NCBI GenBank assembly: GCA_041660025.1 | Contig: JBAZXD010000001.1 | Coordinates: forward strand, 305,851-369,850 | Direction of reading: 5' to 3' | Length of the DNA stretch: 64,000 nucleotides | DNA from: Minisyncoccota bacterium | GTDB lineage: Bacteria > Patescibacteriota > Minisyncoccia > Phycocordibacterales > Phycocordibacteraceae | Shown: positions 12,322 to 58,546 of the stretch, piece by piece | Numbering within the stretch: the stretch's first letter is position 1 | How the letters are laid out: every line of letters begins with the position of its first letter | The notes under the pieces: generated by a model | Databases searched by the model: none | Seen by the model: only the letters and a program-made list of their open reading frames with translations | Told to the model about the DNA's origin: nothing | Program-made: the position numbers and the translations under genes

Positions 12322-12394
12322 GCCGACATACCGAAAAGAGGTAGTAAGACTTGGCCTAGCGGCCCGGAGCGCGACCTCTTTTCGGTATGTCGGC
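12322..12394 (+). repeat. Structured element copy A: 19-bp perfect stem enclosing a conserved 35-nt core (GTAGTAAGACTTGGCCTAGCGGCCCGGAGCGCGAC)
   Basis: Left arm gccgacataccgaaaagag and right arm ctcttttcggtatgtcggc are perfectly complementary. The identical core recurs at 58471..58505 inside a different stem. Confidence 0.6.
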
Positions 12395-12418
12395 GAAGGT
12401 ACGCTATACTACACACAT

Positions 12419-26145: not shown

Positions 26146-29100
26146 TTACGGCGTCGTTGTCGTCGCGCTCGCCGTAGTATCGGTCGTAGCGGTTGTGTCC
26201 GTTGTGGCGGCGGTAGTATCAGTCGTTGTCGTAGTTGTGTCGGCTGTAATGGTTGTATCCGTTGTCGTGGTGGCTGTGTCGGTCGTTACGATAGTCGTAT
26301 CGGTCGTCGTTGTAGTCGTGTCTGTCGGCGGAGTGGTAGTAGCTGTGTCGGTCGTAGTGGTCGCGGTAGTTGAGTCGGTCGTCAATGAGACGTCCGTAAT
26401 GGTAATGGTCGCGTCCACCAAGGTCGTCGACGTGGCTATCGGGGTGATTGATATATCCGTGGTGGATGCCGTTCCCGAAGTGCCCGTCGCCTGAGTGTTC
26501 ACGAATGCCAAGAGCGCCTTCACATCGTCCTTGGTGAGACACTGGTCATCCACACAGATCTTCTCGCTTGCGCGGAATGTCTTTGCAAAGAGGTCTCCGA
26601 TGCCGTTGCTCGCATTCGCGAACCAGCTCGTTATCTGCTCGGTGGAAGAGGCGATTGATATCATCGGCGACCCGCTTGCGCTGCTCACTGCCCCGCTCTC
26701 AAGGGCGGCTACACGGTCCTCAAGCGAGGTCATACGGGTGGTAAGAGCCTCTACCTTGGCGACCAGGGCCTGGGTGGCGGCGAGGTTGAAGGTGGCGAGC
26801 TTGTAGAGGTCCACGCCCAGCCCATCCGGGGAGAGGATTTCGGGGGCGATGGTAGCCGCATCTTCTGCGATGAAGCCCAGGCGGAGTGGGTCCTGCTGGT
26901 CCTCTATTGTATAGCGATAGGTGGCGACCTTGAGATTCACGAGTTGGTCGAGCATATCGTCGGTGGAGGAAGCGTTGAGATAATTGATGTCGGTCTTGGC
27001 CGAGCGGGTGGAAGTGTTGATGAAGCCGGTGGCGCCGATGTCCCCTGCGACCGTGAGGGTGTGGTTCGGGGTGGAAGTGCCGATGCCGATGTTTCCGGAA
27101 GCATCAATCGTGAGTACGGTCGTGGTGCCGAAATTGTTTTGGATAAATGCGGTCGTGAAAGCAATTTCCTGGATGGCCGAAGTCAAAACGGGGACAAATT
27201 TCTCATAATTAAGAGTGTAGTACCCGTCCGGTCCCATCGTCACTGTTTCCGGAAACAGCGGCAATACTTGTTGTGCGATAAAACCGAGTTGGGTTGACGT
27301 TGAAATTGCGAACGTCGGATGCTGGTCATAATAGAGCTGGTTCCATGTGTGGGTTATCGGCTGTATCTGCATAATGCGTGCAAGAGTGGAGCCTAACGGC
27401 TGTATATTCGTCTTTAATCTCTCATCAGATGCCTGGCTCATACACCAAGAATACTGGGTGCTGCAAATGTTTCCGGCCATCGTTAGAAGGCCGCCCATAG
27501 TCATATCAAAGAGATCCGCCGGAGCCGACCAGCCACCGATGCGGAAGACGTTGTCGGAATCAAGCCCCATATTGACGGCGTAGGCTCCAGCGCGATGGAA
27601 GCTCATCGTCGCGCCACTTCCATTATTGGAATATGCCACAAGGGTCTGACATCCTGCACAAGCAGTATCGTTATTAGAAATAAAATTGTTTCCAGCACTC
27701 CATGTTCCCGTCAAGGCGCTGACATTTGTCGCAGTTCCCCCGTTTGCCGGCGCGCTTCCGGCAGTATTGGCATAGCTCACGCTGAAGTTGGATGGGTTCC
27801 ATACATAGTAATTTGAGCCGTCGTTTGAGCCCCAGAGCCACGACGGCTGGCCTCCCTGCCCGCTCCAGTTAAACGGTTTACTTGAAACATTGCCCCACGC
27901 AACGCTATTCGCCGCCCCAGCAGTTAAGCTCGCCGCCGTTCCCGAGAGACCCGCGCCAGAACCATTGAATTGAGAAGCGGAGACAGCACCTGTTGCGGAG
28001 ATAGTGCCTGCCGATGAGACAGTATTAAAATGGCTGTCATTGTTTAGGTCAATATAGTAAGTGGTACTGCTATCAAGGTCATACATATACCGAGAACGAA
28101 GGCTTCCATCCGTCTGCGTGATAAACCCGCCTTGGGCGCTTAGAGTACCGGCAGCCGCGACGGTGCCAGTGAAACTCGCAGCACTTGAAATCGTCTGGCC
28201 GTTGATAGTGCTTGCCGCATTTATAGTACCGGCGCTGTTTATGACGATGTTGCCGTTCGCCGATGAGATGCCGGTGTCGCTCATATACATCGAGCCCGTG
28301 CCGGTGCGGAGCGTCCCCTTCACCCACAGGTTGCTCGCGAAGGTAGAGGTGGCGTTTGTGCCCGTGCCGTTCACATCGATGAAGCCCGCGAAAGTTGAAG
28401 TCGCGCTTTCCGAGGTAGCGGTGAAGTACGGGGCTGAGATTGAAGAAGTGGCAGTGAACCCACTCGCGGTGATGGTGCCGTCGAAGACTGCGTCCCCTGC
28501 GACGGAGAGTTTCGCATACGGACTCGTCGTCCCGATACCGACGTTGCCATTTGATAAAATTTTAACCTGGCTAGTAGAGTTATTAGCCGACAAATCAATA
28601 CCGCCTACTGCGTTTGTGGCAATAGCATAAGAACCGTTTGTGTCAAAATAACGGTCAAGCCCTGTGTAACCAACTTTATTAATGCCATTAATTTGGCCAT
28701 CTGAACGGAAAACCGCCACATAATTTGCTGAATTATTATTCGCTACAGCAAAAACCCTGGCCACTGCGGGCGCGTTTGTAGAGTTAGTTTCTATGTCAAG
28801 TTGATACTGCGGACTCGTCGTCCCGATGCCGACGTTGCCGGTTGTTGTGATGTTCCCTGCGTTGTCTAGTCTCAGTCTCTCTGCTGTTGATGATGCGTCG
28901 TAGAACCTTAATCCGCCGGCAGAATCGGCTCCGGCAATATTTGAAATTTGCCAGAAATGCGCATTGGCTCCTGAATTGTTTAATGACACGGAAAAATCAC
29001 CTGTGTCCGCGAAGGTTGCCGTTCTGGCGCTTAAAAGTCCACCTGAATCAATTGACGCAACAACTGAATCGTTACTGTTTTTCCATTGGGTCAAGTTTGC

Positions 29101-32100
29101 TGTCTGTCCGGCAAAGCCTCTCACTATTAGACCAATATCGGAAACCGCGCCGGAGTTTATTTGTAATTTTGCCCCCGGATTCGCCGTCCCAATCCCCACA
29201 TTCCCGCCGTTCGTGACGATGAAGTTTGTGGCGGTGGAACTCCCGACGACGAATGCGGGGCCCGTGATGCCATTCGGATTCACGCTCAACTGCCCCCACG
29301 GGCTCGTCGTCCCGATGCCGACGTTGCCTTGAGCATCAACAACAGACAAAGCCACATTGCTGCTATTTTGCCATTCAGTCAAATTGGCTGTTTGGGATGC
29401 CGCTGCCCGAACAACAAATGTTTTTACGCCCGTACCACCACTTGTTATAAGAACCCCCGGATTAGTGCCGATGTCACCACGGGGTTCAAAACGAATAGAA
29501 GTTCCATATTCTGTAATAGGAACACTGAGTTTTATATTGCTTGTATGTACACCAAACTGAGGAGAAGAGGCAAGTGACGCATTCGGTGCCCAAAGGCCTA
29601 GAACATTCCATGTCGATCCCTGAATACCTACATAAGCAGTCGTGCCGTCTGTCGTCTTTATGGCCAACTGCCCCGCACTAGTACCCGCGACTGTCCCTGA
29701 CGACAGGGTAAGCAAATTGGTCGGCGCTGCCGTCCCAATCCCCACATTCCCCCCGTTCGTCACAATGAAGTTGGTGGCGGTAGAGGAACCGACGACGAAT
29801 GCGGGGCCCGTGATGCCGTTCGGGTTCACGCTCAACTGTCCCCACGGACTCGTCGTCCCGATGCCGACGTTGCCTTGAATTATCATTCCGTCTGTCGGCG
29901 CGGCAATAGCAGCATATGTGCTACCGATGCTCACGTTACCAGTCACGCCAAAACGACTTCCAAAAGTAGTACCATTGCCAACAATTACCTTTTGGTTGGC
30001 AGTATCATAGCTCATAAAGTAATCAGCACCGTTCCCCAACACTCCTATCTTCCCTACATCTCTTTGTGTGTAATTAAAGTAGGTACTGGCGTCAATATAT
30101 AATAGCTGACCGGTAGATTTTACCCAGCCAGCGATATTCAATTTGTAACCCGCGGGGTCTATCGTCCCAATCCCCACATTCCCCCCGTTTGTCACGATGA
30201 AGTTCGTGGCGGTGGACGAGCCAACAACGAAGGCTGGGCCCGTGATGCCGTTCGGATTCACGCTCAACTGCCCCCACGGGCTCGTCGTCCCGATGCCGAC
30301 GTTGCCGTTATTTAGAATCCTCATCGCTTCCGTCGCGCCGTTGTTCCCCGTCTGGAATATTATATCTGCACCAGTTGTTCCTACTCCACTGGTAGAACGC
30401 AAGGTTAATGGAGTAGCTACTCCATTCCCACCGTAGTAAATACTTCCACCAGTACTTAAAGTAGCTAATACTCCAGAACCCACTTGTAAGGTGATGGGAT
30501 TGTTCACACTATAAAGTTGCATTCCACTTGATGCTCCACCACTAATTGCACTATAAGAACCAAAATAGCCAATGGTAGTTCCAGCTCTTGAAAAGGTCAT
30601 ACTAGGCCCTGTACTACTATTACTCCCGCCATCTATGGTGATGGTTGGAGAACTGGCTATTGCTCCATTCCCAACAGTAAGCAATGTTCCCGGACTCGCC
30701 GTCCCAATCCCCACATTCCCCCCGTTTGTCACGATGAAGTTCGTGGCGGTGGAACTTCCGACGACGAAGGCGGGGCCGGTGATGCCGTTTGGATTCACGC
30801 TCAACTGCCCCCACGGGCTCGTCGTCCCGATGCCGACGTTCGCCCCGTTCCCAAGTATCAAGCTGTTTGATGCGGTAACCTGGGCATTATAGCCAATTGC
30901 GGTGGCGTTGGTCAGATTATTGGTTGAGCCGTTGCCGGCATCGTAACCGATGAAAGTATTATTACTTCCCGTCGTGTTGGAAATTCCGGCTCTCATGCCA
31001 AGAGCAGTATTACCTGTGCCGGTTGTATTACCTCCTAATGCGTTCCAACCAAGCCCCGAGTTCCGTTCTCCGACTCCGGTCGTTAGACTAAGCGCGCTTG
31101 CGCCGACGGCAGTATTATAATTAGCGGTCGTATTCGCCTGCAATGCCGAATTGCCAATTGCAGTATTCTCGCCTCCGCTTGTATTGTATCTTAAGGAACT
31201 AACACCTACTGCCGTATTTGTGGATCCTCCTGCATTACTTTGAAGAGCAACATATCCTATGGCTATATTGGAGTAACCGGTTGTAACGCCAGGTAGAGCA
31301 TAATTACCCAAAGCAATATTTTGTCCTATGCCGGAAGTTGTTAAATTACCGCTAGGAGAACCGATAAAAATATTTTCCGTTCCGGTCTTGTGAATGAAAG
31401 TTGCACCGTTAAATTGGTATGTTGAAGTCGCGTTTACATTAGAAGCAACAATATCCCCGACAACCGAGAGTTTCGCGTACGGACTCGTCGTCCCGATGCC
31501 GACGTTGCCGGAAGCTGAAATACGCATTTTTTCGGAGAGGGACTGAAGTGTAGTCCCTGACGAGCCTGCGTCTGACGTTGAGAATGTAAGAGCTCCTCCC
31601 TCTGCGTTGCCGGTAGCTTTTCCTCCAGCCAAGGTAACACTTGCGCCGGCAATATTTGTACCTGACCCACCTGTCCCGTTAAGAACAAATCCCGAAGGGG
31701 TCGCGCTAATAATCCCTTTCCCAAAATAAGCCGTCGTAATGGCTTGAGTTGAGTCGTCGGCGCCAACGACAAGGGTATTCGCAACATTTGATAATGAACC
31801 CTGCCCGATAGCTATAGCTCCGAGGGCGGTTGCGCTCGCGCTCTGACCTAAAGCAAGAGCCCTTTCGGCAGACGCGACCGAACTTCCTCCAACGGCCGTT
31901 GACAAAGCACCGCTGGCGGATGTGTTGTGGCCAATTGCTGTAGAAATACTGTTAGCGGCTGATGCGTTGTAACCAAATGCAACACTGCTCCCCCCACTGG
32001 CGCTGGCCCCTCTGCCTATAGCAGTACTTAAGCTGGCCGATACTGATGCTCCGTGCCCAACAGCCAAGCTGTCTGCGGAAGTGCCTGTTGTTGATAAGTA

Positions 32101-34137
32101 ACCAACAGCCATTGACCTGTCTCCATTTGCAATGGAACCAAAACCAAACTTTTCACTTTGAGAACCGGAGCCCGGACTCGTGATGTTGCCCGTCACAATC
32201 GCGGCTCCAGCCACAGACAGCAAGTTGTATGGCGAGGTCGTCCCCACCCCCACATTCCCGCTGCCGGTCACCGTGAAGAATGTCGTGGCCGACGAAGAGG
32301 AAGAAATGCGGAATACGTCGCCGGTCTGTCCGGCGACGCTCTGGAGGGTGAGGGTGGTGTTGGTGGTGGAAGCAGAGGCGTCCTGGATGAAGAGCGGGTG
32401 ATTGAATTCGAAGCGCTTGGCGGATTCAGCCGAGTTCCAGGTGAGGAGGGCGTTCGGGGATATGGTGCCTCGCTCAAAGGAGAGATACGCGTTCTCGGTG
32501 TCGGCAGTGGCGTTGTCGGAGTTGATGTTGAAGGTCTCGGCGGTGAGGTTGCCTCCCGTGAGGGTGCCGACGATGGTGGAGGCGTTCACTTCGTTCGCGT
32601 AGATCTTGTCGAAGCGGACGGCGGGGGTGCCGATGTCCACCGTGTCGTCGAGGGCCTGGATGTTGCCGATGATGGTGTTAGAGCCGATGCGGAGGGTGCC
32701 GGCTGATGCGGTGATGTCGTGGTTGCCGGAGCCTGTGAAGGTGATACCGGAGCCTGTGCCGGTGAGGTACGCTCCAGTGCTTCCTCCCACCGAGAAGTTC
32801 CCGGAGAAGGAAGAAGTGGCTGAGGAGTCGGTCGCCATGAAGTTCTGCCCCACGACCTGTCCAGCAATGGAGAGGAGCGAGTACGGACTTGTGGTGCCGA
32901 TGCCGATGTACCCGGTTGTGGAGTCGACGACGAGCTTGTCGGTGCCGACCGTGAGCCCGCCGGCGAAGGTACTCGTGGCGGTGGTGGAGGTGGCAACGAA
33001 GTGTGGTGCGGTGGCGCTCTGGTATGAGGTGAGGGCGCCGGTGGCGATGAGAGAGCCGGAGGTGAAATCGTCGGCGGTGAGGGTATCGAAGGCGCCGCTC
33101 GTGGCAGAGACGCTGGTGCCGTTCGTGAGCGCGCCACCGTCGAAGGTGCCGCCCCTGAAGTCGCCGTTTCGTACGATGAGGTCAGAGAGGTCTTCGATCA
33201 TATTGACCTGCTGGATGGTGGTGACGTTGGTGGCCACCTGGCTCGCAACGGGCTGGATGAGGCTCGAGACCCGCGTGAGGAGCTCGGTGCGGAGCGAGGT
33301 GAGGGACTGGTTGACGAAGTCTTCGGAGACGCCACGGACGATGGTGGAGTAGTAGTTGGTGGGGTTGAGGGTGGTAACGACACGGGTGACGGCAGGAGGA
33401 GTGATGCTTGCCCTGTTGGGTGCGGAACTATCTGATGGGGGGGCGACGGGGAATGCTGGCTCGCTGGTCACAAGCTGAGATTCATCGAACGGCATCGTGG
33501 CCGGTAGTGGATTAGAGACAACGGCGAGGGGCGATGGCTCGTTAAAGATCCCTGCGAGCACATCTTGGGTACGAGAGAAAAGGCCGTTGATAGTTTCGTA
33601 CGTAGCAAGCGCCACCTGTTCCCCGAATGAAAGCGTGGGCTGAGCGGCGGCAACTGCCGCGATTTGTTTCTCGTTATTCGTGAGATGTGGAACGATTGTA
33701 GATTGCGCCGCGACTATTCCCAGCACGACGATGAATGTTGCGACAGAGAATGCGAATACATTGGTGCGCAATGATGCGCTCCAAATATCGAACCGCGACG
33801 CCGAGTGGTGTGAGAGCGAACGGGACAGTTCCGACGGGAGTTGCTGTTGAAGTGGTTTTGTCAGAGCCTTTACCGTGCGACGTACTGGAGGACGGTGCGA
33901 ATGGTATTCAGCCGCGTGGACGCGGGAACGGATCTGCGAAAGTTCTTCCTTGCGTTCCGCCTGCAGGTCAAGGAAGCGGATGAGCGAGTTGCGTTTGATC
34001 ATCCACACCTTGCCAACCTGAACTCCTTCGACTTCGCCGGACCGCGCAAGACGTCGGAGATAGCTCGAAGTATATCCGGAAAGTTTTCCAGCGTACCGAG
34101 TCGTTATCAGATCTTTTTTATATAAATTCGATTTCAT
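26146..34137 (-). CDS. Giant (2663 aa) membrane-anchored surface protein of phage-tail-fibre type. N-terminal HTH, one TM helix, long GNVGIGTTSP-type repeat region, two tandem S74-like intramolecular chaperone/autoprotease modules, coiled coil, Thr-rich tail
   Basis: Single uninterrupted ORF. The N-terminus carries an excisionase/MerR-like HTH (LSGYTSSYLRRLARSGEVEGVQVGKVWMI). A TM helix (FAFSVATFIVVLGIVAA) follows. More than 10 copies of the GxVGIGTTSP(W/Y)xxLxV tail-fibre motif are present. The SDERLKTNI and SAKTDINYL segments, each followed by a GFIAQQ/GFIAED block, resemble peptidase S74. The C-terminus is a TDTT low-complexity tail. Confidence 0.85.
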   Translation of the reverse strand: MKSNLYKKDLITTRYAGKLSGYTSSYLRRLARSGEVEGVQVGKVWMIKRNSLIRFLDLQAERKEELSQIRSRVHAAEYHSHRPPVRRTVKALTKPLQQQLPSELSRSLSHHSASRFDIWSASLRTNVFAFSVATFIVVLGIVAAQSTIVPHLTNNEKQIAAVAAAQPTLSFGEQVALATYETINGLFSRTQDVLAGIFNEPSPLAVVSNPLPATMPFDESQLVTSEPAFPVAPPSDSSAPNRASITPPAVTRVVTTLNPTNYYSTIVRGVSEDFVNQSLTSLRTELLTRVSSLIQPVASQVATNVTTIQQVNMIEDLSDLIVRNGDFRGGTFDGGALTNGTSVSATSGAFDTLTADDFTSGSLIATGALTSYQSATAPHFVATSTTATSTFAGGLTVGTDKLVVDSTTGYIGIGTTSPYSLLSIAGQVVGQNFMATDSSATSSFSGNFSVGGSTGAYLTGTGSGITFTGSGNHDITASAGTLRIGSNTIIGNIQALDDTVDIGTPAVRFDKIYANEVNASTIVGTLTGGNLTAETFNINSDNATADTENAYLSFERGTISPNALLTWNSAESAKRFEFNHPLFIQDASASTTNTTLTLQSVAGQTGDVFRISSSSSATTFFTVTGSGNVGVGTTSPYNLLSVAGAAIVTGNITSPGSGSQSEKFGFGSIANGDRSMAVGYLSTTGTSADSLAVGHGASVSASLSTAIGRGASASGGSSVAFGYNASAANSISTAIGHNTSASGALSTAVGGSSVASAERALALGQSASATALGAIAIGQGSLSNVANTLVVGADDSTQAITTAYFGKGIISATPSGFVLNGTGGSGTNIAGASVTLAGGKATGNAEGGALTFSTSDAGSSGTTLQSLSEKMRISASGNVGIGTTSPYAKLSVVGDIVASNVNATSTYQFNGATFIHKTGTENIFIGSPSGNLTTSGIGQNIALGNYALPGVTTGYSNIAIGYVALQSNAGGSTNTAVGVSSLRYNTSGGENTAIGNSALQANTTANYNTAVGASALSLTTGVGERNSGLGWNALGGNTTGTGNTALGMRAGISNTTGSNNTFIGYDAGNGSTNNLTNATAIGYNAQVTASNSLILGNGANVGIGTTSPWGQLSVNPNGITGPAFVVGSSTATNFIVTNGGNVGIGTASPGTLLTVGNGAIASSPTITIDGGSNSSTGPSMTFSRAGTTIGYFGSYSAISGGASSGMQLYSVNNPITLQVGSGVLATLSTGGSIYYGGNGVATPLTLRSTSGVGTTGADIIFQTGNNGATEAMRILNNGNVGIGTTSPWGQLSVNPNGITGPAFVVGSSTATNFIVTNGGNVGIGTIDPAGYKLNIAGWVKSTGQLLYIDASTYFNYTQRDVGKIGVLGNGADYFMSYDTANQKVIVGNGTTFGSRFGVTGNVSIGSTYAAIAAPTDGMIIQGNVGIGTTSPWGQLSVNPNGITGPAFVVGSSTATNFIVTNGGNVGIGTAAPTNLLTLSSGTVAGTSAGQLAIKTTDGTTAYVGIQGSTWNVLGLWAPNASLASSPQFGVHTSNIKLSVPITEYGTSIRFEPRGDIGTNPGVLITSGGTGVKTFVVRAAASQTANLTEWQNSSNVALSVVDAQGNVGIGTTSPWGQLSVNPNGITGPAFVVGSSTATNFIVTNGGNVGIGTANPGAKLQINSGAVSDIGLIVRGFAGQTANLTQWKNSNDSVVASIDSGGLLSARTATFADTGDFSVSLNNSGANAHFWQISNIAGADSAGGLRFYDASSTAERLRLDNAGNITTTGNVGIGTTSPQYQLDIETNSTNAPAVARVFAVANNNSANYVAVFRSDGQINGINKVGYTGLDRYFDTNGSYAIATNAVGGIDLSANNSTSQVKILSNGNVGIGTTSPYAKLSVAGDAVFDGTITASGFTATSSISAPYFTATSESATSTFAGFIDVNGTGTNATSTFASNLWVKGTLRTGTGSMYMSDTGISSANGNIVINSAGTINAASTINGQTISSAASFTGTVAAAGTLSAQGGFITQTDGSLRSRYMYDLDSSTTYYIDLNNDSHFNTVSSAGTISATGAVSASQFNGSGAGLSGTAASLTAGAANSVAWGNVSSKPFNWSGQGGQPSWLWGSNDGSNYYVWNPSNFSVSYANTAGSAPANGGTATNVSALTGTWSAGNNFISNNDTACAGCQTLVAYSNNGSGATMSFHRAGAYAVNMGLDSDNVFRIGGWSAPADLFDMTMGGLLTMAGNICSTQYSWCMSQASDERLKTNIQPLGSTLARIMQIQPITHTWNQLYYDQHPTFAISTSTQLGFIAQQVLPLFPETVTMGPDGYYTLNYEKFVPVLTSAIQEIAFTTAFIQNNFGTTTVLTIDASGNIGIGTSTPNHTLTVAGDIGATGFINTSTRSAKTDINYLNASSTDDMLDQLVNLKVATYRYTIEDQQDPLRLGFIAEDAATIAPEILSPDGLGVDLYKLATFNLAATQALVAKVEALTTRMTSLEDRVAALESGAVSSASGSPMISIASSTEQITSWFANASNGIGDLFAKTFRASEKICVDDQCLTKDDVKALLAFVNTQATGTSGTASTTDISITPIATSTTLVDATITITDVSLTTDSTTATTTTDTATTTPPTDTTTTTTDTTIVTTDTATTTTDTTITADTTTTTTDTTAATTDTTATTDTTASATTTTP
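26149..26465 (-). repeat. Degenerate tandem repeat encoding a Thr/Asp-rich C-terminal tail
   Basis: DNA shows reiterated gtcgt(a/t)g.. units; protein reads TDTTATTDTT.. for ~105 aa. Confidence 0.6.
29190..30850 (-). repeat. Four near-identical ~140-bp intragenic DNA repeats at ~540-bp spacing, encoding identical 46-aa cassettes
   Basis: Repeated DNA blocks recur at about 29.2-29.33, 29.74-29.88, 30.17-30.30 and 30.70-30.85 kb, e.g. ggactcgtcgtcccgatgccgacgttgcc and attccccccgttcgtcacgatgaagtt.gtggcggtgga. Each encodes GNVGIGTTSPWGQLSVNPNGITGPAFVVGSSTATNFIVTNGGNVGIGT. Confidence 0.8.
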
Positions 34138-34559
34138 TCTTAAAGCCGAAACTAATCAGATAATAACTGATTATTTCCACTTTCTATAAATCCTATAAGT
34201 GGATAACTTCTTGGCCACGCGAGGAGATACTTTTTGCTCTGGCACCGAGGCTTCTCAGAGGGTCAAAACAACTAGTACGAAACGCTATCCGCATACCCCT
34301 TTTGACCTCGAAATGGAGTGTCTCGGCAGAACCTTTCGTAATTGCCTTTATATACGCTGTTTAAATGCTCTATACGCCCCCTAAAGAGGCTTTTCTGGTA
34401 AATATCCGAGAGAACATCTTGCGGTATAGTGTTGTATTGCTGATATTGGATCTTGCCGAAAAAAGTAGTCCGGAGAAATTATGTCTATCTGGTGCTTAAA
34501 TGCCTATCACGTCTAGCCGAGACAAGAAAGCCAATGTTTTGGCGTATGGAATAGCAAAA

Positions 34560-34592
34560 TAAAAACACCCTCGCGGGTGTCTTTATTTTCAA
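34560..34592 (-). terminator. Rho-independent terminator downstream of the DEAD-box helicase gene
   Basis: On the minus strand: acacccgcgagggtgt hairpin followed by TTTTATTTT. Confidence 0.5.
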
Positions 34593-34602
34593 AGAGGGTT
34601 GA

Positions 34603-35961
34603 TTATCGCTCCGAGACGAAGGTCAGCGCCTTACCCTTCATTGCGGCGCGGCCGGTGCGGCCGATGCGATGGACGTAATCCTCGTAGGTCGAGGGGAGGT
34701 CGTAGTTGATGACGTGCGAGACGGCGGGGATGTCGATGCCGCGCGCCGCGACATCGGTCGCCACGAGCACACTCACCTTCCCCGCTTTGAAGGCCTCTAG
34801 CGCGCGCTGGCGCGCGCCTTGGGTCTTATTGCCATGGATGCTTTCGGCGTGGATGTGCAGCCGGGAGAGCGCCTTGGCGAGCTTCTCGACGCCGAACTTC
34901 GTGCGCCCGAAGACAAGCACTTTGCTAAAATCGCGATCCTTCAGCATCTCAGAGAGCACGTCGAACTTATCCTTTCCGCGTGGAATGCGGACGACATCTT
35001 GATCAACGCTCGACGGCGTGTCGCGCGTCTTGACCGAGATGATGACCGGACTCGAGAGAAAGTCACCAATGAGCTTCTCAATATCCCTTCCCATCGTCGC
35101 TGAGAAGAAGAGCGTGTGGCGCTCCTTACGCATCTTGGAGAGAATCATCCGCATATCGTCGATGAATCCCATATCGAGCATACGGTCCGCCTCGTCGAGA
35201 ACGACCGTGCCGAACTCAGTGAGCACAAGCGCCTTGCGCTCCATCAGATCCTTGAGGCGCCCGGGAGTGCCGATGACGAATGCCGGATCGTGCCGGAGCT
35301 GGGAGATCTGCGGGCCGATGTTCGCCCCGCCGACCGCGACCATACCGCGGAAGCCAAGCCCCTTGGCAAAGCCTGCGAGTTCCTTCTCGATCTGCACTGC
35401 GAGTTCACGCGTGGGCGCCATGATAAGGATGCGCTCGCCCTTCTGCTTCATCACCTTGTCGATGAGCGGAATGAGGAATGCCGCCGTTTTCCCGGTCCCC
35501 GTCTCGGCGAGCCCGACGACGTCCTGTCCGAGAAGTGCGTGCGGGATAGCCTTGTCCTGAATAGGCGTCGGCGACTCATACTTACGCGCGATGATATTCG
35601 CCTTCAGATGCGCATTGATATCGAAGTCTGAGAACTTGTGCTCCGGAACGAATACCGGCTCCTCAGTCGTGACGACTGTCTTGTTCATAAACTTCGAGAT
35701 CTCGGCCTCCGTCTCGCCGAAAGAGCCGAAGCCTCCGCGACGCGCCGGGGCGCGACCGCGACTGCCGCCGCTAAACCCGCCGCGTGCGCCATAACCACCC
35801 TTAGACGGGAAACGGGAACTGCCGCCGCTACGGCCGCCAAAACGGCTCGGACCCGTGCTCCCGTGCCCGGACGGGCGCGGCGAATACGGGCGATTACTAT
35901 CGCTTCGAGAACCTCCTGAAGAACTTCCTGCTGATTGATGATTCCAACGCCCTACTTGCAT
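34603..35961 (-). CDS. DEAD-box ATP-dependent RNA helicase with N-terminal RG/SG-rich extension
   Basis: Q-motif (F.D..L......Y..PTPIQ), AETGTGKT, VLDEAD, SAT and HRIGRTGR motifs. ~90-aa Gly/Arg/Ser-rich N-terminus; an alternative start at MNKTVV (35688) is possible. Confidence 0.85.
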   Translation of the reverse strand: MQVGRWNHQSAGSSSGGSRSDSNRPYSPRPSGHGSTGPSRFGGRSGGSSRFPSKGGYGARGGFSGGSRGRAPARRGGFGSFGETEAEISKFMNKTVVTTEEPVFVPEHKFSDFDINAHLKANIIARKYESPTPIQDKAIPHALLGQDVVGLAETGTGKTAAFLIPLIDKVMKQKGERILIMAPTRELAVQIEKELAGFAKGLGFRGMVAVGGANIGPQISQLRHDPAFVIGTPGRLKDLMERKALVLTEFGTVVLDEADRMLDMGFIDDMRMILSKMRKERHTLFFSATMGRDIEKLIGDFLSSPVIISVKTRDTPSSVDQDVVRIPRGKDKFDVLSEMLKDRDFSKVLVFGRTKFGVEKLAKALSRLHIHAESIHGNKTQGARQRALEAFKAGKVSVLVATDVAARGIDIPAVSHVINYDLPSTYEDYVHRIGRTGRAAMKGKALTFVSER

Positions 35962-36017
35962 AATGAATATAGCTAGCTAAATAAAAGCCTTTGAAGTCTG
36001 CTCTCGAATGTAAAAGT

Positions 36018-36335
36018 CTAAGAAATCGAATCGATCTTAACCTTGAGAATTGGCTGGCGATGCCCTTTGCGCTTGTAGTAGCGGCTCTTCGGCTTATACT
36101 TCACCACCTCGACTTTCTTATCCAATCCGGCGAGAACAACGGTGCCCTTGACCTCTGCACCCTTGATAACGGGCGCACCGATGGTCGTGTCCGAGCCGTT
36201 GTCGACGAGGAGCACCTCGCCAAAGACAACTGTGTCACCTTTTTTCAAATCCCCCGGGAGCTTCTCTATAGCAATAGTGTCGCCTTTAGAGACGACATAC
36301 TGCTTCCCGCCGGTCTTGATTACGGCCACTTCCAT
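36018..36335 (-). CDS. rplU: 50S ribosomal protein L21
   Basis: MEVAVIKTGGKQYVVSKGDTI...KYKPKSRYYKRKGHRQ matches L21; start placed at the MEVAV Met. Confidence 0.9.
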   Translation of the reverse strand: MEVAVIKTGGKQYVVSKGDTIAIEKLPGDLKKGDTVVFGEVLLVDNGSDTTIGAPVIKGAEVKGTVVLAGLDKKVEVVKYKPKSRYYKRKGHRQPILKVKIDSIS

Positions 36336-36377
36336 AGTCCCCATAATCTAGCATTTCCGGCCCCAATAGGCAAGCTT

Positions 36378-58451: not shown

Positions 58452-58524
58452 AGCCGGTGCGAAGAAAAACGGTAGTAAGACTTGGCCTAGCGGCCCGGAG
58501 CGCGACCGTTTTTCTTCGTACCGG
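58452..58524 (+). repeat. Structured element copy B: 19-bp stem (one G-U) enclosing the same 35-nt core as at 12341..12375
   Basis: Left arm gccggtgcgaagaaaaacg and right arm cgtttttcttcgtaccggc. The arms differ from copy A but remain complementary; the core is identical. Confidence 0.6.
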
Positions 58525-58546
58525 CGAACGAGTTTTGAAATGATTT

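Follow-up and report, generated by a model that had tools for sequence, protein, structure and literature searches.

The four peptide-identical cassettes in the giant gene of the window (the whole stretch of DNA analysed, 64,000 nucleotides) are probably old copies of one module of a beta-helical fibre, which were placed by recombination or gene conversion and have since been held identical by unusually strong purifying selection. The gene (26146..34137, minus strand; ORF listing and translation) encodes a Paceibacterota fibre-like surface protein of 2,663 residues, in which the 47-residue peptide NVGIGTTSPWGQLSVNPNGITGPAFVVGSSTATNFIVTNGGNVGIGT occurs four times with no amino acid difference. 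The exact matches are located on the minus strand at residues 1100-1146 (copy 1, 30700..30840), 1279-1325 (copy 2, 30163..30303), 1423-1469 (copy 3, 29731..29871), and 1605-1651 (copy 4, 29185..29325). A preliminary description of this DNA had correctly recognized four blocks without any amino acid difference; the shared block comprises 47 residues, neither 46 nor 48, because the initial G of the 48-residue string given there is A in the first copy. The copies had been placed approximately 540 bp apart, which fits two of the intervals (537 and 546 nt) but not the third (432 nt).

At the DNA level, the cassettes differ pairwise at 9-14 of 141 nt (90.1-93.6% identity), no pair is identical, and the longest exact runs common to a pair are 27-54 nt, so the earlier wording “DNA-identical” or “nearly identical” does not hold. 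The first DNA string quoted for the cassettes is exact in no copy, with six degenerate positions needed to fit all four, and the second has three exact occurrences, only one of which lies within a cassette. The 20 variable nucleotide columns fall into 18 codons and all 20 are synonymous, although only ~26% of the sites are (S=36.7 of 141), which is the signature of purifying selection on the protein. The amino acid identity, which had been read as a sign of conversion, does not support that reading. Pairwise dS among the four cassettes is ~0.20-0.47 (pS 0.18-0.35), and the variable sites are mostly singletons that give a star-like pattern; copy 3 is the outlier, with six private synonymous changes. 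The copies can be told apart by variants private to each and by their unique flanks, and with a longest exact run of 54 nt, the concern that long perfect repeats may have collapsed in the assembly is not upheld.

Cassettes in other genomes provide a reference for these values. Cassette pS is 0.45 within genomes and 0.74 between genomes, where it is saturated, and the between-genome pN is 0.14; the N-terminal domain of the giant protein shows a pS of 0.54-0.62 against its nearest relatives. Within-genome pairs elsewhere exhibit 1-9 residue differences at equal silent divergence, and the total lack of amino acid change in the window cassettes is a contrast that the favoured explanation does not account for. 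A DNA-level constraint on the cassette across genomes was also considered and rejected, as per-site codon sharing is close to the expectation from degeneracy.

Homologues of the giant protein number 237 at E<=1e-10, and almost all of them are giant Patescibacteria proteins titled “tail fiber domain-containing”; the protein of the window itself is absent from the protein collection searched. Peptidase_S74 (PF13884) is matched in two stretches near the C-terminus (E=2.3e-20, 73 bits versus a cut-off of 22). The first is an intramolecular chaperone domain (27241..27429, minus strand; Pfam and motif) with SDERLK, of the form SDxxxK, at residue 2237, and the second is an S74-like stretch (approximately 26818..27012, limits inferred, minus strand; Pfam) with a degenerate STRSAK at residue 2376. 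No other phage-type domain was found in the Pfam scan of the protein, and the NCBIfam search returned no family. At the N-terminus, an HTH_17-like segment (33970..34104, minus strand) is matched by Pfam below the cut-off (E=1.5e-4, 22.4 bits versus 27), and PF12728 is recorded for many of the homologues. It is followed by a single strongly hydrophobic segment at residues 127-145 (33703..33759, minus strand), the best Kyte-Doolittle 19-mer of the whole protein, which is a putative N-terminal membrane anchor. Residues 669-861 (31555..32133, minus strand) form a region of YadA/Hep_Hag-like head repeats according to sequence matches to the PDB entries 7o23, 3s6l, 3wp8, and 1p9h; in the whole-protein Pfam scan YadA_head is weak (21 bits versus a cut-off of 25), and the same scan contains no YadA C-terminal membrane-anchor domain. 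A Pfam match to DUF3463 inside cassette 3 (21 bits versus a cut-off of 31.3) is a sub-threshold chance similarity.

Searches against the PDB relate the repeat units to the MAT fibres of Bdellovibrio. Residues 830-979 as a single sequence match 8ond with E=4e-9, and a cassette-spacer-cassette profile matches 8ond (1.2e-17), 8oml (3.5e-9), 8ojn (6.6e-8), and 8ol4 (1.8e-6); 8on4 is a further MAT structure matched by the unit profile. The profile of the unit from copy 2 to copy 3 aligns with the beta-helix domains of Bd2133. A single-sequence query extending from copy 1 to copy 3 yielded the MS2 coat protein at E 0.014-0.08, which are chance matches, and an AlphaFold2 monomer model of the unit from copy 2 to copy 3 (26-row alignment) was too poor to be used (pLDDT 63.5, pTM 0.28, short beta-strands only). 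A trimeric beta-helix structure and an extracellular location of the fibre appear plausible.

The segments between the cassettes are of a different character. All are on the minus strand: sp1 (132 residues, 30304..30699) separates copies 1 and 2 and lacks significant similarity to the other spacers, sp2 (97 residues, 29872..30162) separates copies 2 and 3, sp3 (135 residues, 29326..29730) separates copies 3 and 4, and sp4 (115 residues, 28840..29184) extends 3′ of copy 4 up to the next GNVGIGTTSP motif. In the spacer comparison, no significant mutual similarity is observed (E>=0.04), in agreement with the earlier statement that the inserts are completely different, except that the end of sp3 and the start of sp4 match (42% over 48 residues). 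In the homologue search, which covered sp2 and sp3 as well, sp1 has one or two weak partial matches among the 120 best homologues and 78 loci, and sp2 has few distant homologues (34-54% identity).

The cassette is a family-wide module between two GNVGIGT motifs. Units matching it are present in 3,436 representative proteins at E<=1e-3, and 46 instances were counted in 27 of 121 proteins. In all, 111 unique instances come from 61 sources, which are assemblies or stand-alone loci. Those of the genome scan were picked by the peptide pattern PW[GA][QL]LS[VI]NP, so that conservation at the pattern positions is partly built in. No Pfam model matches the 47-residue module above threshold in the scan of the whole protein. 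A literature search found no description of the cassette or of S74 fibres in Patescibacteria; papers on CPR genomes contain general statements that giant surface proteins are encoded.

The limits of the cassette coincide with the motifs: the similarity begins and ends exactly at its two GNVGIGT motifs. In all six cassette pairs, the 150-nt flanks are at background (identity 0.53-0.62 versus 0.55 +/- 0.03). Different codon sets encode the two motifs within a cassette. Seven “type A” GNVGIGT-coding 21-mers (GGCAACGTCGGCATCGGGACG, <=2 mismatches; 0 expected by chance) span 28528..31509 on the minus strand, at 28528, 28819, 29308, 29854, 30286, 30823, and 31489; four of the seven open cassettes and three open unrelated units. 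Five “type B” 21-mers (GGGAATGTGGGGATTGGGACG; codon listing) span 29185..32259 on the same strand, of which those at 29185, 29731, 30163, and 30700 form the 3′ ends of the cassettes and that at 32239 has 2 mismatches. GGCAACGTCGGCATCGGGACG is the commonest motif version in several related genomes and accounts for 26 of the 38 motifs in the closest relative. None of the 13 motif codons varies among the window cassettes, compared with 18 of the 33 interior codons (Fisher p=5e-4). Within the cassettes, codons 24 and 38 group copies 1 and 2 against 3 and 4, whereas codon 29 (AGT versus TCN) groups copies 1 and 4 against 2 and 3, which constitutes a four-gamete conflict based on three informative sites in all; the AGY/TCN dimorphism of codon 29 is present in other genomes as well.

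Recent module copies in related genes end at the same motifs. The closest relative (L004) contains a 274-nt module copy that is 100% identical and has GGCAACGTCGGCATCGGGACGACGA at both ends, and two further relatives have copies that end at the cassette 3′ motif (L066, 570 nt, 97.5% identity; L050, 888 nt, 90.5% identity). In the relatives, 33% of recent-repeat ends lie <=15 nt from a motif versus 6% in the null (5.5-fold; n=69 ends, which are not mutually independent). The breakpoints, seen in the relatives' genes, show that GNVGIGT-bounded modules are the units that get copied; the window gene itself shows similarity confined between its two motifs. Additionally, the four window cassettes are mutually nearest in DNA, with 9-14 differences compared with at least 18 to any of the 107 instances elsewhere (CAYJLK is the nearest). 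This DNA kinship, the motif limits, the four-gamete conflict, and the module copies in relatives indicate that recombination or gene conversion at module boundaries shaped the array and that the family as a whole is mosaic. The motif DNA may be a mechanistic crossover site rather than the sole junction tolerated by selection, but selection for in-frame, foldable junctions alone could also account for the surviving breakpoints at motifs.

The surroundings of the gene were searched for a variation system. Eight genes next to it were scanned, over ~4 kb to one side and 8 kb to the other. They are housekeeping genes, including CysS, DnaB, RecR, a DEAD helicase, RmuC, a Mur ligase, and a PBP, and none of the eight encodes a recombinase or reverse transcriptase. 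Within the 64-kb window, cassette and motif DNA is confined to the giant gene, and there are no silent donor cassettes, inverted cassette copies, or inverted repeats >=45 nt. Judged by these eight genes and by the repeats of the window, the locus does not resemble a programmed variation system of the kinds represented by pilE/pilS-type silent cassettes, shufflons, or diversity-generating retroelements. No same-species sequence was found, and the metagenome scan gave distant relatives alone, whose matches stemmed from the motif or the cassette. The sole near relatives of the neighbouring helicase gene (~80% DNA identity) have other surface-protein genes at the position of the giant gene. Orthologues with a similar number of divergent repeats, which had been named beforehand as evidence against the conversion reading, are found in part, in that the positional orthologue P0003 carries four and these are divergent; no contig location was found for P0001 and P0002.

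One reading, in line with the preliminary description, is that the cassettes owe their identity to ongoing intragenic conversion or to a programmed, recombination-driven variation module, by which the inserts would also be shuffled at an appreciable rate. The silent-site divergence, which is lower within genomes than between them (pS 0.45 versus 0.74), and the motif-bounded, fully identical 274-nt copy in the closest relative would be consistent with such a process, for which the seven near-identical type A motif copies of 21-30 nt could provide minimal homology. However, the window copies are never identical, their variants are mostly private at a dS of 0.20-0.47, and their exact shared runs reach 27-54 nt at most; with no silent donors or inverted copies in the window and neither recombinase nor reverse transcriptase among the eight housekeeping neighbours, this explanation is quite unlikely. 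What stands of the proposal is a historical role of conversion or recombination at the motifs, whereas the idea of ongoing concerted evolution fails on the dS values and the lack of an identical pair. The opposite extreme, in which four anciently separate units never exchanged DNA and resemble each other from peptide constraint alone, retains a slight probability, as the peptide is maintained in the 61 sources scanned although the silent sites have reached saturation, every difference in the window is synonymous, and between-genome per-site codon sharing is near random. It would, however, leave the DNA similarity of the four copies unexplained. When codons of the cassette peptide are drawn independently from the genome's own codon usage, 30-35 nt differences per pair are predicted, and none of 20,000 simulations gave the 14 or fewer that are seen; the codon usage shared within the genome inflates DNA similarity somewhat, but according to the simulation the effect is much smaller than would be needed. 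The four-fold cassette repeat is far beyond chance, and the four copies are closer in DNA to each other than to the 107 instances elsewhere.

Two further explanations concern the age and extent of the copying. Tandem duplication of whole cassette-insert units, after which the inserts would have diverged in a runaway manner, would agree with the regular in-frame spacing (537, 432, and 546 nt) and with the iterative profile search, in which the inserts emerge as very distantly related members of one general unit type. At a cassette dS of 0.2-0.47, inserts duplicated in this manner would be expected to be at least ~70% identical in DNA, whereas the flanks are at background and the inserts lack significant mutual protein similarity, which renders this course of events very improbable. 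It is scarcely credible that the copies are recent and only look old, having undergone selected silent recoding that breaks direct repeats and stabilizes the gene. Such recoding would account for the zero amino acid changes where relatives show 1-9 at like silent divergence and for the different codon sets of the two motifs of each cassette, but there is no direct evidence of it. It would also be expected to act most on the motif-coding ends, which are the most repeated parts, yet these show the least recoding (0 of 13 codons variable).

Under the favoured explanation, that of old module copies maintained by selection, the cassettes would be copies of a short structural module in a modular, probably trimeric, beta-helical surface fibre of Paceibacterota, whose units each start with a GNVGIGT(TSP)xxxLxV motif. 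Among these units the cassette is the smallest, measuring 41 residues from motif to motif, and it precedes four different, fast-evolving domains of 97-135 residues. Whole modules would have been recombined or gene-converted within the lineage, with junctions in the short motif-coding DNA, to give the cassette copies. This copying would have occurred long ago (dS ~0.2-0.47), after which purifying selection would have purged every amino acid change while silent sites drifted. A possible role of the cassette is that of a conserved connector on which variable and perhaps host-binding domains are displayed.

A life attached to host cells is assumed for CPR/Patescibacteria. Their giant surface proteins, which are almost entirely uncharacterized, are leading candidates for the contact with the host. 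The present gene is tied, at the level of repeat units, to the solved MAT fibres of a predator and to S74 phage fibres. Mosaic trimeric fibres were already known; the 47-residue module is newly defined, is far more conserved than the remaining protein, and recurs in thousands of giant proteins. As motif-bounded modules are the units that get copied, the motifs provide a parsing rule for the annotation and modelling of giant proteins, and the hypothesis that follows is that of a conserved connector and variable binding domains reshuffled at motif junctions. We regard it as unlikely that the GNVGIGT-coding DNA is an active crossover site at which modules are duplicated, deleted, and swapped in frame at population-relevant rates. 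If it were, cassettes and variable domains would be exchanged within and between giant fibre genes, and an episymbiotic CPR bacterium would vary its host-contact fibre, in both length and binding repertoire, from the chromosome in a manner resembling phage adhesins. More generally, peptide identity among repeats is no proof of identical DNA or of conversion that is still under way, and the silent sites need to be checked.

Among known systems, the Bdellovibrio bacteriovorus MAT proteins (Bd2133, PDB 8OND; Bd3182) resemble the giant protein in that “...ExMRIxxxGNVGIGTxxPxxxLxV” opens successive beta-helix domains, and Peptidase_S74 chaperone domains with an SDxxxK motif are located near the C-terminus in both. 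The MAT study describes these fibres as intertwined trimeric beta-helices whose capping loops carry motifs and, as here, as mosaics with conserved ends and a diversified remainder (Caulton et al. 2024, PMC10769870). The giant protein differs in being encoded by a CPR bacterium, in its length, which is ~2.5 times greater (2,663 versus ~1,000 residues), and in having a Thr-rich tail that comes after two S74 stretches in tandem. Its N-terminus, with a sub-threshold HTH_17-like segment and one hydrophobic helix, would also differ from that of MAT proteins, which is described as a signal peptide and a conserved 130-residue beta-rich domain. The near-invariant 47-residue PWGQLSVNPNG mini-module also sets the giant protein apart, and no mention of such a module was found in the available parts of PMC10769870.

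Phage S74 fibres and spikes, such as the K1F endosialidase and the T5 L-shaped tail fibre pb1, share the C-terminal PF13884 intramolecular chaperone/protease domain, which governs trimer folding, and the phage fibre body is described as a trimeric beta-helix. In contrast to these, the present protein combines giant size with a predicted membrane anchor, and its gene is chromosomal amid housekeeping genes rather than in a prophage. In trimeric autotransporter adhesins (YadA, BpaC, Hep_Hag), variable heads and stalks are joined by conserved “neck” connectors. The giant protein matches their YadA-like head repeats at residues 669-861, and a short conserved connector between variable trimeric domains is what is proposed for the cassette. 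However, Pfam shows no YadA C-terminal anchor domain in it, its own putative anchor being N-terminal, and the cassette has no similarity to the necks of these adhesins.

In the gp38 and gp37 proteins of T-even phages, conserved glycine-rich motifs (GRMs, “His boxes”) separate hypervariable segments (Trojet et al. 2011, PMC3157838), and crossovers in the small motifs swap these segments (PMC3157838; Tetart et al. 1998 cited there). The GNVGIGT motifs likewise bound modules, and recent module copies in the relatives break at GNVGIGT; by analogy, a T-even style exchange of segments may take place at these motifs. The two systems have no sequence relationship; the likeness is a functional analogy only, and the present host is cellular rather than a phage. 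The scale also differs, as short loops are exchanged in a 260-residue adhesin of T-even phages, whereas modules of 41-135 residues are set in a fibre of 2.6 thousand residues here.

The peptide NVGIGTTSPWGQLSVNPNGITGPAFVVGSSTATNFIVTNGGNVGIGT (47 aa) occurs four times in a giant ORF of 7,992 nt (26146..34137, minus strand; 2,663 aa), and all four copies are exact 47-aa matches on the minus strand: copy 1 from aa 1100 (30700-30840), copy 2 from aa 1279 (30163-30303), copy 3 from aa 1423 (29731-29871) and copy 4 from aa 1605 (29185-29325), with start-to-start distances of 537, 432 and 546 nt. The four amino-acid-identical blocks of the preliminary description are thus borne out, with 0 residue differences across 47 aa, except that the leading G of its 48-aa string is A in copy 1. 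The identity that it also claimed at the DNA level does not hold, as 9-14 of 141 nt differ between pairs of copies (90.1-93.6% identity) and the longest exact runs common to pairs are 27-54 nt; the first DNA string that it quoted matches no copy exactly, and the second does occur three times but only once inside a cassette. The 20 variable columns are spread over 18 codons, and the residue is unchanged at every one of them, including codon 29, where serine switches between AGT, TCG and TCC.

Only 36.7 of the 141 sites in the cassette are synonymous by Nei-Gojobori counting, and the chance of 20 changes all being silent is 0.26^20, or about 2e-12. Changes numbering at least 20, every one of them silent, are incompatible with neutrality. 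Cassette pairs in the window (29185-30840) show pS values of 0.18-0.35 and dS values of 0.20-0.47 (Nei-Gojobori) with 0 true amino-acid differences, whereas comparable within-genome pairs elsewhere with equal silent divergence (n=14) carry 1-9 differences (median about 5), and purifying selection on the window cassettes is stronger than in relatives.

Coding of the same peptide by unrelated DNA would leave far more silent differences: independent back-translation with this genome's codon usage gives an expected 30-35 differences per pair, against the 9-14 observed, and 0 of 20,000 simulations yielded 14 or fewer. The four cassettes share DNA ancestry. The three nearest DNA relatives of every window copy are the other window copies, and the nearest cassette outside the window, in assembly CAYJLK, has at least 18 differences. 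Duplication of a larger unit at a cassette dS of 0.2-0.47 would have left obvious flank homology, which is absent, as the 150-nt flanks of all six pairs are 0.53-0.62 identical against a background of 0.55 +/- 0.03; the similarity is therefore confined to a module that runs from motif to motif. The variable sites are mostly private to a single copy, in a star-like pattern. Two sites group copies 1 and 2 against 3 and 4, whereas the serine switch at codon 29, where the AGY/TCN dimorphism is also found in other genomes, groups 1 and 4 against 2 and 3, and this four-gamete conflict speaks for at least one exchange inside the array in the past. Of the recombination proposed earlier, the historical, module-level part is supported, whereas ongoing concerted evolution is not, and neither is assembly collapse.

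Each cassette is opened and closed by a 21-mer coding GNVGIGT, in a type A and a type B codon version, respectively. Silent variation affects 0 of 13 codons of the two motifs versus 18 of 33 interior codons (Fisher p=5e-4). At up to 2 mismatches, type A has seven sites in the window, of which four open cassettes and three open unrelated units; type B closes every cassette, and a scan of the whole window places both versions inside the giant gene only. No silent or inverted cassette copies were found elsewhere in the 64-kb window. A separate 65-nt element lies twice on the plus strand (12333-12397 and 58464-58528; 85% identity), in both cases just past the end of a plus-strand ORF, and forms an 18-bp stem around a conserved 31-nt apical part, AGUAAGACUUGGCCUAGCGGCCCGGAGCGCGA, with folding free energies of -43.9 and -39.2 kcal/mol (z -6.3 and -4.8). 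The two stems differ in sequence by compensatory changes that preserve pairing, and the element has no Rfam match at gathering thresholds.

Earlier stages of the module-copying process are visible in related loci. L004, which comes from the closest genome sampled, has two 100% identical copies of a 274-nt segment in unrelated flanks, with GGCAACGTCGGCATCGGGACGACGA at both boundaries. In locus L066, a GNVGIGT motif marks the start of a 570-nt copy (97.5%) that terminates within the 3' motif of the cassette, and an 888-nt copy in locus L050 (90.5%) stops there too. Recent intragenic repeats number 18 in 162 sequences (161 fetched loci and the window), and 33% of their ends, which are not independent, lie within 15 nt of a GxVGIGT-like motif, versus 6% in a local null. 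The open frame of L004 (CAYJLK010000001.1, 1-16619) extends over at least 16.6 kb and holds 38 GNVGIGT motifs, 26 of them coded by one identical 21-mer, GGCAACGTCGGCATCGGGACG, which is also the most common form in the window and in L006, L007, L011, L034, L036 and L039. In locus L001, all 15 of 15 motifs are in other DNA, so homogenisation of motif DNA varies strongly between genomes.

The inserts between cassettes are 132, 97 and 135 aa long, with 115 aa after copy 4, and share no significant similarity except for a 48-aa stretch common to the end of the third and the start of the fourth segment. Few or no homologues of the inserts are detectable in the 120 best matches and the related loci examined, and iterative profile searches identify them as very distant versions of one general unit type. 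Collinearity with the best homologues is limited to the N-terminal region (aa 161-646, 62-75% identity) and the Peptidase_S74 (S74) region (about 50%), with a mosaic middle part between them. The positional orthologue P0003, which has the helicase and L21 neighbours in common, carries four mutually different cassettes with lineage-specific substitutions at other positions (aa 510, 668, 1053 and 1170). Window 26146-36373 was also compared with L159-L161, Logan assemblies whose DEAD helicase falls in the same 90% cluster (about 80% DNA identity). In place of the giant fibre gene, the stretch downstream of the helicase there codes for three smaller proteins of secreted or surface type (442, 284 and 488 aa) with faint Big_6/dockerin matches; on two of these three contigs, L159 and L160, a ParE/Phd toxin-antitoxin pair lies upstream of L21. 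With its surface-protein genes entirely different in the nearest helicase relatives, this locus is a site where surface proteins vary among related genomes. A search for same-species sequence, needed for variation in copy number or order, found none.

The cassette recurs across the family. An ungapped scan of the 120 best homologues, with at least 31 of 47 residues identical, gives 46 instances in 27 proteins (1-5 copies per protein), and a scan of species-representative genomes gives 183 confirmed stretches, or 111 instances after de-duplication, including the window's four, from 61 sources (assemblies or stand-alone loci). Against 1.84 billion representative proteins, the 48-aa peptide matches 3,436 at E<=1e-3 and 746 at E<=1e-10, with 3-47 matching stretches each and lengths up to 7,920 aa. 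The window cassette and the consensus of the other 107 instances disagree at 2 of 47 positions, and one copy, in another genome, is amino-acid-identical to the window cassette. Cassettes between genomes have a pS of 0.74 (saturated) and a pN of 0.14, and those within genomes have means of 0.45 and 0.09; the "conserved" N-terminal domain shows a pN of 0.21-0.27 at a pS of 0.54-0.62 versus its nearest relatives. Per-site codon sharing between genomes is close to the degeneracy prediction, which indicates no cross-genome DNA-level constraint on the cassette.

The giant protein belongs, as judged from its sequence, with the mosaic S74/MAT-like putative trimeric fibres, an already known kind named after the mosaic adhesive trimer (MAT) fibres of Bdellovibrio bacteriovorus. 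Pfam finds two S74 stretches (E=2.3e-20) and weak YadA_head repeats. The pattern "...ExMRIxxxGNVGIGTxxPxxKLxV" has three successive matches in the Bd2133 crystal-structure sequence (8ond, E=4e-9) and matches other MAT members, and a cassette-spacer-cassette profile retrieves 8ond (E=1.2e-17), then 8oml, 8ojn, 8ol4 and 8on4, and weakly MyRF. The study of the MAT fibres describes their units as intertwined, trimeric beta-helix domains set off from one another by capping loops that bear the motif, and assigns to the S74 domain the role of an autoproteolytic chaperone of trimerisation (PMC10769870). An active S74 domain in the giant protein would free everything past the first cleavage serine. The S74 stretches are in tandem (SDERLK at aa 2237 and a degenerate STRSAK at aa 2376, with GNIGIGTSTP between them), and the region (26149-27429, minus strand; aa 2237-2663) continues with a coiled-coil-like stretch and a Thr/Asp-rich low-complexity tail of ~100 aa containing an 18-nt tandem repeat (26224-26271). 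The sole strongly hydrophobic segment of the protein is aa 127-145. Within 33703-34104 (minus strand; aa 12-145), an HTH_17/excisionase-like N-terminal segment, sub-threshold here and recorded for many homologues, precedes this single hydrophobic helix, and a cytoplasmic DNA-binding-type fold on a presumably extracellular fibre is an odd pairing that recurs across the family. A sub-threshold Pfam match to DUF3463 in cassette 3 (29788-29868, minus strand; aa 1429-1455), also faint in the homologous protein P0011, is probably a chance compositional similarity. The 237 homologues at E<=1e-10 in the protein search are nearly all of 1.5-4.5 k aa from Paceibacterota/Patescibacteria MAGs, are often named "tail fiber domain-containing", and many combine HTH_17, Bact_surface_Ig-like and S74. 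The neighbours of the gene are housekeeping genes (CorA, CysS, DnaB, RecR, DEAD helicase, RmuC, Mur ligase and PBP), and the gene is chromosomal, not prophage.

We propose that the fibre is modular, that the cassette is a minimal unit of it running from one motif to the next, and that recombination or gene conversion, with its junctions in the motif, probably copied this unit to four places within the lineage. The copying would date to between about a fifth and one half of the silent divergence to the nearest sampled relatives, and purifying selection has kept the cassette invariant since then. Homology to the MAT fibres suggests that the cassette serves as a conserved connector ahead of variable beta-helix domains, which possibly bind ligands; a monomer model of the cassette region is poor. 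In T-even gp38, conserved Gly-rich motifs flank hypervariable segments and act as crossover points (PMC3157838), and the resemblance of the giant fibre to this system is a functional analogy that serves as a lead, not membership of the gp38 family.
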